A stretch of 64,000 nucleotides of DNA from Actinobacteria bacterium UBA7524 (GCA_002478275.1 DLMY01000053.1:26347-90346); one strand, 5' to 3'. Positions 19,136 to 24,861 are shown, counted from the stretch's first letter. The notes: a model not told the origin generated them from the sequence alone. A program made the numbers and translations.

Positions 19136-19453
19136 GTGAGCGTGGTGCCGGGGGGCCGTGCCGGAGGCCGTTACGCGGGTGACCGGAACGGTCCAGTGCA
19201 GGAACCACGCGCGTCAGCGCAGGACCGGCCGCCCGGACCCGAGGTGATTCCGGGCTCTCTCCTCGGCCCCTCTCTCATCGTCGCAGCCCTGGCCTTCATC
19301 ACCGTCCTCGTGAGCACGTTCTTCCTGTTCCTCTGGTCTTCAGCGTTCGACTCCGCCGGTGCGATCGGCGTGGCGTGGCTGCTGTTGTCTTGCGGGTCTC
19401 CCGTCGTCGGACTGGCATATGCTATGAGAGAGGGTGCCCTCACGTGGCGCTAG
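19136..19453 (+). CDS. small 2-TM membrane protein at the NuoA position of the complex-I-like operon (no NuoA motifs recognised)
   Basis: GTG after GAGAGGAG. Two hydrophobic helices. The stop lies 2 nt before the NuoB-like start. Confidence 0.45.
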   Translation: MSVVPGGRAGGRYAGDRNGPVQEPRASAQDRPPGPEVIPGSLLGPSLIVAALAFITVLVSTFFLFLWSSAFDSAGAIGVAWLLLSCGSPVVGLAYAMREGALTWR

Positions 19454-19455
19454 GC

Positions 19456-19917
19456 GTGCGGTCCTATGCGGCGCGCGTTCTAGGTGTCGTGCGCGCCCGA
19501 TCGCTTCGCTGCATCGTGAGCGGTCAGGTCGTCTGCTGTGCGGGTGGTTCGAACTGCGCGGATGTGGTCCGCGAGGCGGGTGTATGCGGGAGCGACACGT
19601 CCGAGTGCAGGACGGGGCTGGCTGACGTACTCGTCGTGACCGGCACCGTAACGGGCAAGACGGGCTCTTCGTTGCAGGAGTCATACGATGAGATGCGGGA
19701 ACCACGGTGGGTCGTGGCTGTGGGGGACTGCGCATGCACAGGCGGGCCGTTCCGTGAGTACCGGGGCGTGGTGCCGGGCACGAGGGAAGTACTCCCTGTG
19801 GACGAGAGTATCCTGGGATGTCCGCCCAGCGTCGAAAGGGTTCAGCAAGCCTTTGAGAGCCTTCGGGCGTCGGCGCGTGCGGATCACAGCTCGCGTCCGG
19901 ACGGAGCGACGCCTTGA
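19456..19917 (+). CDS. NuoB / NiFe-hydrogenase-small-subunit-like protein (Oxidored_q6 family), divergent
   Basis: VVCC... , ADVLVVTGTVT, EPRWVVAVGDCACTGGPF and PVDESILGCPP motifs. The start is uncertain: GTG 19456 is preferred and GTG 19516 is possible. Confidence 0.75.
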   Translation: MRSYAARVLGVVRARSLRCIVSGQVVCCAGGSNCADVVREAGVCGSDTSECRTGLADVLVVTGTVTGKTGSSLQESYDEMREPRWVVAVGDCACTGGPFREYRGVVPGTREVLPVDESILGCPPSVERVQQAFESLRASARADHSSRPDGATP

Positions 19918-21611
19918 GGCTCGATGTGAAGACCCTTGCCGAGGAGCTCGAGCAGGAAGGCGTCCCTCACGCCATCGAGGGAGATGCGCTTCAGGCGCAC
20001 CTGACGGTCGAGCCCGAGGACCTCGCCGGCGCCGCAGAGGTGCTGGCCCGGTCGGAGCACGTGGCGGCTCTCAGTGACTTCTTCGCCAGCGACACAGGCG
20101 ACGGCGTGGAGTTGACGTACCGGCTGCGGCTCTCCGATCTCGCGTCTGACGTCTTGCTTCGCTGTGCCATGTCGTACAGCACGCCTCTTGAGTCGCTGTG
20201 GACGGCTTTTCCCGCGGTGCTGATGTGCGAGCGCGAGGTGGCGGAGTTGTTCGGATTGAGACTGTCAGAGCATCCCAATCCGGTGCGGCTGCTCACCATG
20301 GCCGGGGCTGAGCCCATGATGCGGCACTCCGTCGCGCTGAGACATGAGGACGACTACGCAGCCGGCGAGGAGCCCTGGCAGACCGAGACTGACGCAGCGA
20401 CGCCCGGTGTCGCGTCACGGGCCGGGCGCCGTGGCGTCTCGCTTGAGGGTAAGCGGAGTGAGCGTCCCCACCGTGCGGCACCGATCGGGCTCACGCACGT
20501 CCCGGCCGGCGCCGGCACGGGACACTCCAGACGAGGACTCATCCGTCTTGCTCCGAGGTTCGATCCGGGTAGCGACGCTCCGGGGTTGACGCTTCGAGTC
20601 GTCGGCGAGAGCGTCCTGGCGGCCGAGGCCGACATGGGCTTCGCCCACCGGGGGATCGAGAGACTCTCCCAGGAGCGTCACCTTATGGAGCTGGGCGGGT
20701 TGCTGGCTCGTTTGGACCGTTCGGCTTCGGTCCACGCGCAACATGCTGCGGCGTTGGCGATCGAGCGCACCGTGCACGTCGAGGCCTCACCCAAAGGCGC
20801 ATGGCTGCGCTGTCTGTATGCCGAGCTGGCCAGGGTCGCGGGCCACCTCGGATGGCTTCAGGGATTCGTGAGCGACGCCGGTCTTCGTTCGCTGTCGGAG
20901 AGGGCGGCCAGGAACCGACAGGCGTTCCTCGGCATCGGTGAGCAGCTTGCCGGTGATGCCGGTGCCGGGTATGTGCTGCCAGGGGGAGTGTCCGCGGACA
21001 TGCCAGCCGCGCTGGACTCCAGTATCACGGAGCTTTGCGATGCGTTCGAACCGGACCTGGAGAGAATCGGGAGGAAGGTGCTGGGCAGCGGGCTGCTCAG
21101 GCGCAGACTGCACGGGCTGGCTGCGTTCGGCGCGCAGACTGCACGTGCGCTGGCTGTGACCGGTCCGAGCCTGAGAGCCTGCGGCATGGTCTGTGACGTA
21201 CGCCGGGACATGCCGTACGACGCATACGCCGAACTTGAGTTCGAGGTGCCGATCGGTAGCGTCGGTGATGCATGGGACCGGATGTCGGTGCGGATCGAGG
21301 AGATGCGGCAGTCGGTCGCTATGATTCGCCAGCTTGTTGCCGGACTACCCGAGGGCGCGTGCCGTACTCAAGCCGACAGCCCCTGGCGCGCGAGTCCGGG
21401 TGAGGCGTACGCGGCGGTCGAATCGGGCCGGGGAGAGCTCGGGGTCCACCTGGTCACCACGGGCGCTCGGAAGCCGCAGCGAGTCCGACTCAGGACACCC
21501 TCGCTGTTCGCCTGCCAACTCGCCGAGGAGATCCTGCCGGGGACGGAGCTCTCTGACGTGTTCCTCGTTCTCGGCAGTCTCGACATCGGCCTCGGGGAGG
21601 CTGAACGGTGA
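19914..21611 (+). CDS. fused NuoC-NuoD-like subunit (49-kDa / large-subunit homolog) without NiFe ligands
   Basis: The N-terminal 30-kDa-type domain and the C-terminal GFAHRGIERL, GPSLRACGM.CDVRRDMPYDAY, GDAWDR..VRIEEM and GSLDIGLGEAER match NuoD signatures. TTG start overlaps the NuoB-like stop (TTGA). Confidence 0.8.
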   Translation: MRLDVKTLAEELEQEGVPHAIEGDALQAHLTVEPEDLAGAAEVLARSEHVAALSDFFASDTGDGVELTYRLRLSDLASDVLLRCAMSYSTPLESLWTAFPAVLMCEREVAELFGLRLSEHPNPVRLLTMAGAEPMMRHSVALRHEDDYAAGEEPWQTETDAATPGVASRAGRRGVSLEGKRSERPHRAAPIGLTHVPAGAGTGHSRRGLIRLAPRFDPGSDAPGLTLRVVGESVLAAEADMGFAHRGIERLSQERHLMELGGLLARLDRSASVHAQHAAALAIERTVHVEASPKGAWLRCLYAELARVAGHLGWLQGFVSDAGLRSLSERAARNRQAFLGIGEQLAGDAGAGYVLPGGVSADMPAALDSSITELCDAFEPDLERIGRKVLGSGLLRRRLHGLAAFGAQTARALAVTGPSLRACGMVCDVRRDMPYDAYAELEFEVPIGSVGDAWDRMSVRIEEMRQSVAMIRQLVAGLPEGACRTQADSPWRASPGEAYAAVESGRGELGVHLVTTGARKPQRVRLRTPSLFACQLAEEILPGTELSDVFLVLGSLDIGLGEAER

Positions 21612-22612
21612 GCGCCGCGATCGCCTCCGCGATATCTCGGGCCTTCTTGACCGTCGCCGTGCTCGCGGCCAACGCGTTCCTGATGGCTTCGCTCTCCCGG
21701 GTTTCCTCACGGGCGGACCGGGCGGGGTACGGGCGGGTCAGGTTCGAGCCGCTGCGGCCTGTCTGGGAAGGCATCCGGCTGGCGGGCAAGGAGCAGGGAG
21801 CTCCTTGGGGCATCGTGCGAGGAGTGGGAGCCGTGCCGGTGCTCGCCGCGCTGTTTCTGGTGCTTGTCGCCTTCGGAGTGGTGCCGTACTCGGCCACCCT
21901 CCGGGTCGTGCGAACGGACACTGCGGTCATCTACCTGCTCGGAGTCTTGGTGATGTCCGTGTTGTGGCCGTTCCTTGCGGGATGGGCGAACGGGGATAGC
22001 CTGGCGATCGTGACGGGAATGCGCATCACCGCTCGCAGGACCATGTTCGTATCCGCGCTGGTCCTCTCGGTCGTTCCCGTGGTCATGTATGCCGGCGGCT
22101 TCGACTCGACGGTCATAGTGTCCGCTCAGTCGGGCGTGTGGCTTCGCGTCGTCCCTCGCTGGTTCGCCACGTTCCCGATGTTCTGGCCCTCGTTGGCGGT
22201 CTTCACATCAGCGTCGGCGGTCGCGTACGGGGCGTCGCCGAATGGGGCGTTCGAGCGCTCTGTCGGTCTTGGAGACGAGTCTTCACTCGCGCCCACTCCG
22301 CTCCTTTGTGGAGTGCAGCGCCTTGTGGAGCATGCGTACCTCTTCATAGTGTCGGCACTGACCGTCATCCTGTTCTTCGGTGGCTGGACGGTGCCCAGAG
22401 TCTCCCTTGCGGGTGTCGCGCCTCTGGTCTTCCTGGTCAAGGTCTACGCATGGGCGACGGTGGTGATGTGGGTGCGCAGGAGGTTGCCTGCTCTGCGCCA
22501 GAGTGACCTGATGGCGTTGGGATGGAGATGGCTCGTCCCGTTGTCGTTCGTCTGGATAGTGGTGTGCGCCCTTCTGACGGGATTGTTCGACCTGGGTCAG
22601 GGGGTGAGCTGA
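21608..22612 (+). CDS. NuoH-like membrane subunit, divergent
   Basis: About 8 TM segments. GWANGDSLAIVTGMR (compare GWASNSKYALLGGLR) and WVRRRLPALRQSDLMALGWRWLVPLS (compare W.RAT.PR.R.DQLM..WK.LLPL). GTGA overlap with the upstream gene. Confidence 0.7.
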   Translation: MSAAIASAISRAFLTVAVLAANAFLMASLSRVSSRADRAGYGRVRFEPLRPVWEGIRLAGKEQGAPWGIVRGVGAVPVLAALFLVLVAFGVVPYSATLRVVRTDTAVIYLLGVLVMSVLWPFLAGWANGDSLAIVTGMRITARRTMFVSALVLSVVPVVMYAGGFDSTVIVSAQSGVWLRVVPRWFATFPMFWPSLAVFTSASAVAYGASPNGAFERSVGLGDESSLAPTPLLCGVQRLVEHAYLFIVSALTVILFFGGWTVPRVSLAGVAPLVFLVKVYAWATVVMWVRRRLPALRQSDLMALGWRWLVPLSFVWIVVCALLTGLFDLGQGVS

Positions 22613-22613
22613 C

Positions 22614-23114
22614 GTGTACGCTTCGGACCTCGCCTTCGCCGTCCTTGCACTCGCAGCACTTGGCGGTGCGGCCGGGGTGTTGCTTTCGAGGAGCACGGTG
22701 CATGCCGTGCTGTGGTCGTTGGAGTCGAGTGTGGCTGTAGCGGGTCTCTACGTGTTGCTGTCAGCGGAATTCCTCGCACTCGCCGTGGTGATTCTCTGGG
22801 GAGGTGCCGCCAGTCTGGCGTTGTTGGTCACCATCGCCGTGACAGCACGACACGGTGAGCCGGTGTCGCGTCCGCGCGAGGGGTCGTTGAGAGCAGCCGT
22901 ACTCGCGGTCGCGTTCGCGGCCCTTATGCTCGCGAGGATCGCGGGAGCGGATCTGGCCACCGCCGAAACGGCAGTGGCACCCCGTATGCGCGACCTCGGG
23001 GAGGCCCTGTTCGCGGAACCGGCGCTGATGGCCGCTTCAGGAGCTCTGTCCCTGATGCTTCTGCTCGTCATGATCGCGGGAGTCTGGTGGTCACGGGGAG
23101 GCGATGGGCGATGA
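22614..23114 (+). CDS. NuoJ-like membrane subunit
   Basis: RSTVHAVLWSL...AGLYVLLSAEFLALAVVILWGGA parallels RN.IH.AL.L...AG.YV.L.A.FL...QVIVYAGA of NuoJ/Nqo10. Confidence 0.65.
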   Translation: MYASDLAFAVLALAALGGAAGVLLSRSTVHAVLWSLESSVAVAGLYVLLSAEFLALAVVILWGGAASLALLVTIAVTARHGEPVSRPREGSLRAAVLAVAFAALMLARIAGADLATAETAVAPRMRDLGEALFAEPALMAASGALSLMLLLVMIAGVWWSRGGDGR

Positions 23115-23431
23115 GTGTGGGACCGGGCGCCTTTCTCGCGTTGGCTGCGGTGCTTTTCGCAGCTGGCCTCTATGGAGCGGTGGCCAGACGAGGACCTCTT
23201 GCGGTGTTGATGTCTCTTCAGATGATGGCGATCGCGGTGAATCTGAACATCGTGACCTTCACGCGGTTTGTCACACCGGCAGAGCAGGCCGGGAAGCTGC
23301 TGCCCGTGTTCTCCCTGACTGTCGCGGTGTTGCATCTCGGCCTGGGCGTGGCGCTCGTCTCAGGAGCCAGTCGACGTGCACGTTCTGTTCAGCGCGGGTC
23401 TGCCGGGCCTGCCGGGGCGGGTGAGCGATGA
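23111..23431 (+). CDS. NuoK-like membrane subunit with both canonical membrane glutamates substituted
   Basis: Aligned by eye to E. coli NuoK (RRN.LFMLIGLEIMINA / AAAEASIGLAL). Here the equivalents read RRGPLAVLMSLQMMAIA / VAVLHLGLGVAL. ATGA overlap. Confidence 0.65.
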   Translation: MSVGPGAFLALAAVLFAAGLYGAVARRGPLAVLMSLQMMAIAVNLNIVTFTRFVTPAEQAGKLLPVFSLTVAVLHLGLGVALVSGASRRARSVQRGSAGPAGAGER

Positions 23432-24861
23432 TGGGCGGCTTCACACAGTTCGTGCCCGAGGCGGCATTGCTCGTGCCTGTTCCCGTGGCGCTACTGCTGG
23501 GGTCACGCTTGCGCGAACGCTGGATCGCATGGCTGGCGATGATATCGTGCGGCGTCGCCGGTGTCAGCGCATGGTACGCGCCCACCATGCTGGACCAGGC
23601 GTCGGCGGTCACGACGACGCTCGATACCACGGCAGGCGCGGCACGGCTGGCCATCTGCGTACTCGCCGCATTGTGGCTCGCGTGGGTCGCGGCGCGCGGG
23701 GCAGGCGCGGAGCGGTCCGGAGAAGCGGTCGGGCTGGCGCTGCTCAGTACCCTCGGGGGCCTGCTTCTTGCGAGCGCCACGGACCTGGTCGTGGCCTTCG
23801 TGGCGATGGAGTTGACGGTTCTGCCCGCCTATGTGCTCCTCGGCTATTCGCGTCACGACGTCCCGGTCCTAAAAGGCGTGCTCAAGCAGATGACCCGTTC
23901 CGCGTTGGCCTCGATGATCGCCCTGTACGGCATATCGTTTCTCTACGGGTTGACGGGGGCCACATCGTTCGAGGGTATCGCCACATCGTTGCCGGAGGCC
24001 GGCCCGCTGGGTGCGACGGGGGCGATTCTGGCGGTCGGCGGACTTCTGGCACGCTTGACGTTGCTGTACCGGTGCGCATCGGCCCGTTCCGGGGTGGCCG
24101 GGTCATCCGTGTTCACAGCGTTCGTGGCGAGCGTTCCGGCATTCTCCATGAGCGTGTTCCTCGCGCAGTTCTTGTCGCAGGCACTCACGGTACGCTCGCT
24201 CCAGACGATACTCGTCGCGGGCGCCGTGTTCTGCCTGGCCGTCGGGCTGTACGTGATCGTGCGGGAGCAAGAGCCAAGAGAGTTGCTCGCCGGAGCGGGT
24301 ACAGTGCACATAGGGTTTCTCATGGCTGGCCTGGCTGTGCTGGTAGCGGCCTCACCCGGATCGTCCATCGACGCGGTTCCGGTGCAGGTGTCACAGCTGG
24401 CGGTGGTCGCGCCTCGGGTCGACGCGCTCGTCATCTACGCGTTCACCTACTCCATCGCCGCACTCGCGCTTGGGCTGCTTCTGGCGGGAACAGAAGGAGA
24501 GGGACCGCGGTACGGGCGTCGGCTCGCCATGCGCGCGGCTGCGGTGCTGCTGGCATCGCTTGCAGGTGTGCCTCCCCTGGCGGGCTTTGCAGGCAGATGG
24601 CTGTTGCTCAGATCCGTCCACGAGGCTGGTTTCGGCTGGCTCGTGGCCACAGGGGTCGCAGTAAGCATCGTCTCCGCTTGGTACGTCGTGCGAGCCGCCC
24701 TATCGCGCGCTGGCTCGGCCGAAGCACAGGCGACCGCCGAGGAGGAGCGCATCACCGGTAGCGGTCCGGGCGGATGGTTGTCGGAAGACCGCCTCTCGCT
24801 CTCCCTTGCGGTCTCTGCCGTACTCGTGGGTGGTGCGGTCCTCTGGGTCTTCTGGTTCTGA
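23428..24861 (+). CDS. single antiporter-like subunit (NuoN/NuoM/MrpD family, Proton_antipo_M), degenerate
   Basis: About 14 TM segments. The TM5-type AMELTVLPAYVLLGY motif is present. The TM7/8 region reads GGLLARLTLLYRCASARSG instead of ..K....PFH.W.PD. ATGA overlap with the NuoK-like gene. Confidence 0.65.
   Translation: MMGGFTQFVPEAALLVPVPVALLLGSRLRERWIAWLAMISCGVAGVSAWYAPTMLDQASAVTTTLDTTAGAARLAICVLAALWLAWVAARGAGAERSGEAVGLALLSTLGGLLLASATDLVVAFVAMELTVLPAYVLLGYSRHDVPVLKGVLKQMTRSALASMIALYGISFLYGLTGATSFEGIATSLPEAGPLGATGAILAVGGLLARLTLLYRCASARSGVAGSSVFTAFVASVPAFSMSVFLAQFLSQALTVRSLQTILVAGAVFCLAVGLYVIVREQEPRELLAGAGTVHIGFLMAGLAVLVAASPGSSIDAVPVQVSQLAVVAPRVDALVIYAFTYSIAALALGLLLAGTEGEGPRYGRRLAMRAAAVLLASLAGVPPLAGFAGRWLLLRSVHEAGFGWLVATGVAVSIVSAWYVVRAALSRAGSAEAQATAEEERITGSGPGGWLSEDRLSLSLAVSAVLVGGAVLWVFWF

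Follow-up and report, generated by a model that had tools for sequence, protein, structure and literature searches.

The locus considered here raises the question of what a NuoB-like subunit with cluster-ligating cysteines is for in a gene cluster that encodes no NuoI-type electron wire. It lies within a window of 64,000 nucleotides (the whole stretch of DNA analysed; DLMY01000053.1:26347-90346) from the metagenome-assembled genome (MAG) of Actinobacteria bacterium UBA7524 (GCA_002478275.1), where seven coupled genes occupy positions 19136-24861 in the order A'-B-CD-H-J-K-N, with no nuoI, nuoE, nuoF or nuoG in the cluster. The initial annotation of the nuoB-like gene had proposed that a redox-active cluster is preserved while the usual chain of NuoI, NuoG and NuoF is missing, and had offered two consequences, direct reduction by a soluble carrier (ferredoxin or flavodoxin) or a role other than electron transfer. 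It is the latter that better fits the residue losses described below, and on balance we consider it probable that the cluster specifies a stripped, redundant and non-catalytic remnant of complex I, still translated and with a probably structural Fe-S site.

Descent from an eleven-gene operon and loss of functional residues

The order's syntenic loci, 12 in number, all have the genes in the arrangement A-B-C/D-H, a gap of ~0.5 kb, J-K, a gap of ~3.6 kb and N, beside PSP1 and often MCP genes, and in 'Coriobacteriaceae bacterium EMTCatB1' (G022) the gaps are filled by a 159-aa 2x[4Fe-4S] NuoI and then by NuoL and NuoM. Because the NuoD of this bacterium clusters with that of Parvivirga hydrogeniphila (MCL4079293), the order can be named as Anaerosomatales/OPB41, isolates of which are described as carrying nuoNMLKJIHDCBA and no nuoEFG, with ferredoxin as the presumed electron source (Khomyakova et al. 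2022, PMC9686372). In the NuoD tree the window protein nests with genomes of the same family (Shimodaira-Hasegawa-like approximate likelihood ratio test support 96), and the terminal branch that leads to it measures 2.69 changes per site, ~15-fold the median of 0.18. Fast evolution of the MAG as a whole is ruled out by the ordinary branch of the window's PSP1 in a control tree, 0.2 against a median of 0.59. Synteny and phylogeny together indicate that the cluster is a lineage-specific, accelerated derivative of this Nuo11 operon.

With the type-1 operon nuoABCDHIJKLMN of Anaerosomatales/OPB41 (for example GAV31630-31 in EMTCatB1 and MCL4079286-96 in P. hydrogeniphila) the cluster has in common its position, its gene order and the lack of NuoE, NuoF and NuoG; its NuoD nests in the type-1 clade, and the C-terminal half of its NuoB is ~50% identical to type-1 NuoB. 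In contrast to that operon, nuoC and nuoD are fused, the NuoB-like protein has its CC pair shifted by one residue and four extra cysteines, and quinone-site and proton-path residues that are invariant in 8-12 relatives are replaced. Measured against the full Nuo11 set of A, B, C, D, H, I, J, K, L, M and N, the window lacks I, L and M and has a truncated A, the NuoA-like remnant aligning without the first transmembrane helix (TM1), the YECG loop and the FDIE motif. NuoI is missing from the junction of nuoH and nuoJ, since a single nucleotide separates the nuoH stop from nuoJ, and nuoL and nuoM are missing since nuoN overlaps nuoK (ATGA); both deletions, of nuoI and of nuoL-nuoM, are exact at gene borders. 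A tblastn search with the EMTCatB1 proteins found no remnants of nuoI, nuoL or nuoM within the window and matched each remaining gene in a single frame. No stand-alone NuoI is encoded elsewhere in the genome, and the initial annotation was thus right about the missing wire. The divergence extends to every subunit compared: Pfam bit scores (window/EMTCatB1) are 31/129 for A, 67/103 for B, 199/314 for D, 118/348 for H, 57/126 for J and none/93 for K, and of the columns invariant in the 8-12 orthologues of the order the window keeps 57% in B, 59% in D, 38% in H, 56% in K, 50% in J and 41% in A.

The changes reach residues on which catalysis depends in relatives. In NuoD the loop that reads GPQHPSTHGVLR in relatives reads APRFDPGSDAPG in the window, with both histidines gone; in Thermus numbering His38 has become Ser and Tyr87 has become Arg (GDY to LDR). 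The protein still has Arg84, Asp86, Asp139 and the ELxRxxxH His. We take the N2-adjacent roles of Arg84, Asp86 and the ELxRxxxH His to be those known from mutagenesis of Nqo4 and the 49-kDa subunit. His38, Tyr87 and Asp139 form the quinone-reactivity signature of NuoD (PMC4758237). The acidic loop between TM5 and TM6 of NuoH (QTPFDxSEAESEL..EYS) is replaced, both glutamates of NuoK are replaced (SLELM to SLQMM and SAAEIG to AVLHLG) and NuoJ has lost its PFE, so that the E-channel carboxylates (NuoH loop, two NuoK Glu, NuoA Asp/Glu, NuoJ Glu) are lost from the cluster. NuoN, the only antiporter-like subunit left, keeps its TM5 Glu; its TM7 Lys is Arg with PFHxWxPD deleted, its TM8 Lys is Ala and its TM12 Lys is Arg. 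With NuoI gone and these signature residues replaced, the wire for electron input is thus dismantled, and so are the site of the acceptor and the path of the protons.

A core with a single antiporter-like subunit is also the architecture of the Ech/Mbh group. Group 4 [NiFe] hydrogenases (Ech, Mbh, Hyc) and Ehr resemble the window in having one such subunit and a NuoH/NuoB/NuoD-like core, and the large subunit of Ehr, like the window NuoD, has neither NiFe cysteines nor quinone residues; the window reads RLDRSASVH at the L1 position and SLDIGLGEAER at the C-terminus, with the NiFe Cys motifs absent. Unlike the window, however, Ech, Mbh, Hyc and Ehr all keep a NuoI/EchF-type 2x[4Fe-4S] subunit, and no such ferredoxin subunit (EchF/HycF/MbhN) is present in the cluster, which in turn keeps NuoA, NuoJ and NuoK and has its recent origin in the Nuo11 operon, not in the hydrogenase branch. 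Ehr are Ni-free relatives of Group 4 hydrogenases (Marreiros et al. 2013, as cited in PMC4758237). A separate Ni-free group-4-like lineage is not supported, the window NuoD lying inside the Anaerosomatales Nuo11 clade and Ehr being set apart without direct sequence comparison. Cyanobacterial and chloroplast NDH-1 (PDB 6l7o, 6hum) likewise lacks NuoEFG and takes its electrons from ferredoxin, yet it retains the quinone site and at least three antiporter-like subunits. The docking site for ferredoxin in NDH-1 is NdhI/NdhS, from which the NdhI clusters carry electrons to N2; to our knowledge, electrons enter through a NuoI-type subunit in every solved relative, including Fd-NDH-1L (6l7o).

Fold and cysteines of the NuoB-like protein

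The NuoB-like protein is predicted to adopt the flavodoxin-like NuoB/PSST fold. An AlphaFold2 model built from 47 sequences has a mean predicted local distance difference test score (pLDDT) of 85.5, with 69-84 over the N-terminal 60 residues and 94-97 beyond, and Foldseek matches it to complex I subunit B chains (E ~1e-12, template modelling score 0.6-0.72), which by phmmer are also its closest solved relatives; NdhK is another match, and MbhJ and HycG align to its C-terminal half only (34-37 bits). Its match to PF01058 (Oxidored_q6), at 67.3 bits against a gathering score of 27, spans profile positions 36-126 only. With the N2-carrying subunit NuoB/Nqo6/PSST (PDB 4hea_6, 8e9g_B, 7awt_B) it shares the fold, the presence of a tandem CC and in-register GxCA and GCPP motifs. 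In contrast to that family it misses the NCBIfam NuoB cut-offs (NF005012, 88.6 against 116; TIGR01957, 84 against 142.7), has lost its NuoI partner and carries a remodelled segment around a displaced CC pair.

Nine cysteines are present: Cys23, Cys31 and Cys32 (VVCCAGG), Cys38 (SNC), Cys48 (GVCG), Cys55 (SEC), Cys96 and Cys98 (GDCAC) and Cys126 (GCPP). The positions at which the initial annotation had placed the CC, GDCA and GCPP cysteines are correct (Table 1), and its count of three extra cysteines becomes four in the N-terminal part (Cys23, Cys38, Cys48 and Cys55). Its claim that all four N2-type ligands are retained stands for the third and fourth, whose columns hold Cys96 and Cys126 in every alignment made. 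Across 47 NuoB-like sequences Cys126 is invariant and Cys96 is conserved in at least 90%, and in phmmer coordinates against T. thermophilus 2fug_6 the two (Cys96 and Cys126) fall at Cys111 and Cys140, which, with Cys45 and Cys46, we take to be the numbers of the cluster ligands in Nqo6. For the tandem pair the claim has to be qualified. The 12 orthologues of the order read SLW..FG-x-A-C-C-A-I-E-G and the window reads SLRCIVSG-Q-V-V-C-C-A-G-G, which places the pair at +1 with respect to both flanking anchors (SL..G upstream and ADV downstream, at equal total length); an ungapped alignment puts Val in the first ligand column and the extra Cys in the Ala column of CCA. The segment between CC and ADV, which had been thought short, measures 27 residues against 28 in relatives, and it is its sequence that differs, being fully replaced with loss of the CCxxE Glu, RFD and SPRQ, all invariant in the 12 orthologues. 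A compensated frameshift hiding a canonical N-terminal motif was considered and rejected, the other two frames containing stops and showing no similarity.

At the 57% retention seen for columns invariant in the 12 orthologues, three in-register cysteines would survive with a chance of ~0.19, and their retention, which is in line with this background, is not in itself evidence of function. Gains of cysteine amount to 13 in 1,760 residues, and five of them (Cys23, the shifted Cys32, Cys38, Cys48 and Cys55) fall within 33 residues (scan statistic P=0.0006); the clustering beside the CC pair thus appears to be non-random. Divergent singleton NuoB-like proteins found by exhaustive search keep CC, GxCA and GCPP but lack CCxxE, RFD and SPRQ. 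Since these metagenomic proteins, too, keep the ligands without the chamber motifs, the pattern suggests that a NuoB fold sheds its cluster last of all and that the cluster is hence a cofactor of structural importance; the conservation of Cys96 and Cys126 across the 47 sequences points the same way. A cluster-binding site, as initially annotated, is plausible for the window protein, and we prefer a structural site to the redox centre that was proposed.

A new CxxxC (ACGMVC) is also found in the fused NuoCD protein, at residues 423-427 (window 21180-21194), where all relatives have ASG(V/I)xF.

Remnant, pseudogene or new centre

The ancestor was a ferredoxin-type 11-subunit operon nuoABCDHIJKLMN without nuoEFG, beside PSP1 and MCP genes, from which nuoI and nuoL-nuoM were excised at exact gene borders in the lineage of this MAG, with loss of the first helix of nuoA. 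The lining of the quinone chamber (NuoB helix and loop after CC, NuoD beta1-beta2 loop and Tyr87, NuoH TM5-6 loop, NuoA loop) and the charges of the proton path (two NuoK Glu, three NuoN Lys, NuoJ Glu) were overwritten, and what has been kept best is the core that NuoB and NuoD form about N2, made up of their C-terminal halves. The product would most likely be a membrane stub that neither pumps nor reduces quinone, in which a [4Fe-4S] site (Cys31/32, Cys96 and Cys126) would persist for the structural support that it gives to the NuoB fold and not as the end of a wire. A second, intact A-N nuo set with canonical NuoB, NuoD (HPSTHG, DY) and NuoH motifs is encoded at G000:C3:78084-89043 (minus strand); it is likely that this paralogous cluster does the real work and has made the window copy dispensable. 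Several genomes of the order carry one nuo type only, and either type can therefore be dispensable.

If expressed, such a product would be a natural experiment in the dismantling of complex I, in which A'-B-CD-H-J-K-N stay together and the B-D core and cluster ligands are kept after the loss of electron entry, of quinone chemistry and of pumping. It would bear on the minimal assembly unit of the complex, on whether N2 plays a structural part and on the decay or recruitment of redundant respiratory operons, with the limited weight that can be given to a singleton from one MAG lineage. It also has a consequence for annotation, as names in the style of the Prokaryotic Genome Annotation Pipeline ('NADH-quinone oxidoreductase subunit B/D/H') would suggest that the MAG has two working complexes I, the second of which it almost certainly lacks.

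It could be argued that the operon is simply dead and its genes pseudogenes. Open frames would then be due to nothing but a high GC content, an inactivation that is still recent or selection that acts against transcriptional polarity on htrA-rlmH downstream, and the cysteine pattern would be meaningless. The loss of 41-62% of invariant residues is in keeping with this, as are the occurrence of long spurious open reading frames (ORFs) in this genome, the outright loss of either nuo type in some genomes of the order and the start of htrA 77 nt after nuoN. The mean BLOSUM62 score at differing columns is also negative (-0.1 to -0.7), which implies weak constraint at the protein level and counts against our preferred reading as well. 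The frames themselves, however, are difficult to reconcile with neutral decay. The cluster genes have no frameshifts and no in-frame stops, where the other forward frames contain 1-19 stops; when a relative's nuoD was evolved neutrally to 44% identity (0.42 substitutions per site), 5.7 stops arose per 377 codons and 1 of 100 runs stayed free of stops. Extrapolated from nuoD and without indels, ~30 stops would be expected over the ~1,900 codons of the cluster, where none is seen. GC content at the third codon position is 0.66-0.81 and the pattern over the three positions is like that of neighbouring genes; Shine-Dalgarno (SD) sites are kept; and changed sites have retained their hydropathy (r 0.26-0.41, which is 2-5 standard deviations above shuffles). 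Conservation is strongly patchy, from 6 to 76% per 30-aa block, and is best in the C-terminal halves of NuoB and NuoD (the latter at 66-76% identity to relatives), in NuoK and in residues 90-180 of NuoN, with the losses in NuoD clustered (runs test P<0.0002). The seven genes thus appear to be maintained still as translated genes, and we regard a dead operon as unlikely, allowing that part of the openness could stem from selection against polarity on htrA and not from selection on the proteins.

Maintenance of this kind also weighs against the remnant reading from the other side, as seven ORFs with their SD sites and start/stop couplings have clearly been retained by selection and the two deletions are border-exact. 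These features argue for some function of the product, and it is not obvious what benefit a leftover with a structural site only would bring. The four or five clustered new cysteines and the NuoD CxxxC (ASGVGF in relatives) further suggest a gained metal site. On these grounds the cluster might be a neofunctionalised minimal module, in which Cys23, Cys38, Cys48 and Cys55, possibly with Cys423 and Cys427 of NuoD, form a second Fe-S or metal centre that replaces the NuoI wire or makes a new active or sensing site, in a redox or signalling role unrelated to quinone reduction. The coordinated rewriting of exactly those elements that line one cavity, and the retention of the N2-adjacent NuoD residues Arg84, Asp86 and the ELxRxxxH His, would fit such a module. 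We nevertheless consider it doubtful, though the most serious of the alternatives: the protein is a singleton among ~15 billion, so that its new cysteines are untried by evolution, they lie in the segment of lowest model confidence (pLDDT 69-84), stray cysteines occur in the same region of other divergent NuoB-like proteins, and the substitutions overall look relaxed and not directed. A more specific version, a four-Cys metal centre, perhaps joined by the NuoD CxxxC, in the space once taken by the quinone chamber or by the contact with NuoI, in a NuoI-less, one-antiporter 'mini complex I' that is reduced directly by a soluble carrier, acts on a new substrate or serves as a membrane redox sensor, seems to us quite improbable. 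Least likely of all is a minimal working enzyme in which soluble ferredoxin or flavodoxin directly reduces an N2-type cluster and the cluster hands the electrons on to an acceptor in the membrane, whether or not the single antiporter-like subunit pumps ions. Four cysteines are on hand for a cluster, loss of NuoI would expose the B-D surface above it, the 11-subunit complexes of the order without NuoEFG are thought to use ferredoxin (PMC9686372), and the one-antiporter architecture resembles that of Ech and Mbh. A ferredoxin- or flavodoxin-driven quinone reductase or pump, and with it the direct reduction initially suggested, nevertheless appears unsupported because the electron-acceptor side is gone as well: NuoD His38 and Tyr87 of the quinone signature (PMC4758237), the acidic NuoH loop, the NuoA loop and the NuoK, NuoJ and NuoN charges are all lost, and solved relatives receive electrons through the kind of subunit that is missing here. 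Further, no UbiA/MenA-family prenyltransferase (PF01040) was found in the 83%-complete MAG, against its presence in 38/40 relatives and 29/29 high-quality ones, which may reflect either loss of quinone synthesis or an assembly gap.

Cluster anatomy, database neighbours and related loci

The features of the cluster are collected in Table 1. SD sites precede all seven genes, and a scan for promoters and terminators gave nothing usable. The gene caller starts the nuoB-like gene at GTG 19444 (record P0002), and the initial annotation had started it at GTG 19456. An ATG ORF at 23104-23424 was rejected as a gene, being a hydrophilic, out-of-frame artefact; nuoK lies in the frame of 23087-23431. PSP1 and MCP genes are found upstream of the cluster, and the gene of the HtrA protease follows it.

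Table 1. Genes of the nuo-like cluster and cysteine codons of its NuoB-like protein (window coordinates)
Feature	Position	Strand	Remarks
nuoA-like remnant	19136..19453	+	only TM2-TM3 and C-terminal GLAYAxxEGALxWR alignable; PF00507 30.7 bits; SD GAGAGGAG before GTG start
nuoB-like gene	19444..19917	+	157 aa from GTG 19444; alternative starts 19456, 19375
Cys-rich remodelled segment	19510..19608	+	lineage-specific Cys23, Cys38, Cys48, Cys55 and shifted Cys32; replaces CCxxE/RFD/SPRQ quinone-chamber elements
Cys31-Cys32 codons (VVCCAGG)	19534..19539	+	tandem CC, one residue off canonical register
Cys96 codon (GDCA)	19729..19731	+	in register with third N2 ligand
Cys126 codon (GCPP)	19819..19821	+	in register with fourth N2 ligand
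fused nuoC-nuoD	19914..21611	+	gene-caller start 19926; beta1-beta2 loop His residues and Tyr87 lost
nuoH-like	21608..22612	+	TM1-2 loop and TM5-6 loop motif (QTPFDxSEAESEL..EYS) replaced; PF00146 118 bits against 348 in G022
nuoJ-like	22614..23114	+	begins 1 nt past nuoH stop
nuoK-like	23111..23431	+	frame of 23087 ORF, ATG 23111; both membrane Glu replaced
nuoN orthologue, single antiporter-like subunit	23428..24861	+	ATGA overlap with nuoK

Searches for a second member of this degenerate lineage found none among representatives of ~15 billion proteins. In an exhaustive phmmer search the next match to the window NuoB stands at 40% identity; k-mer searches with NuoB and NuoCD led to a 561-aa fused CD protein (P0157), which is yet canonical (HPSTHG, GDY); and a scan of genome contigs with NuoCD gave matches of at most 31% identity only. 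Those database proteins that come nearest to the window NuoB (P0008, P0009, P0011, P0013, P0030, P0069 and P0144) are short, divergent metagenomic singletons. A metagenome scan with P0013 recovered ordinary NuoBs only. P0009 is closest (47%) to Anaerosomatales type-1 NuoB, and neither the phylum (401 genomes) nor the order (146 genomes) yielded a close relative of it. Judged from these sequences, NuoB copies may have decayed or been remodelled more than once.

The only NuoI-type domain in the genome belongs to the intact cluster on contig C3, where a 565-aa gene between nuoH and nuoJ (fusion ORF L005:1426-3123, minus strand) joins a GltD/NfnB-like module (Fer4_20 and Pyr_redox_2) to a NuoI-type 2x[4Fe-4S] domain. 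Through the fusion of this GltD-like NAD(P)H flavoprotein, NuoI comes with its own module for NAD(P)H input. NuoK of the same cluster has Gly at its second Glu position. Three further NuoI candidates, on contigs C10, C35 and C41, were rejected as PorD-like, NIL-Fer4 and a small ferredoxin, respectively. The only NuoF-like gene (PF01512, 176 bits) is found near a PF01058 hydrogenase small-subunit-like gene at C45:25934-28803, a locus that probably encodes a soluble NAD-linked [NiFe] hydrogenase. The same contig carries a second NuoB/NuoD-like pair at C45:2048-3363, and four tandem antiporter-like genes (NuoL/M/N- or MrpA/D-type) lie at G000:C53:12500-18500.

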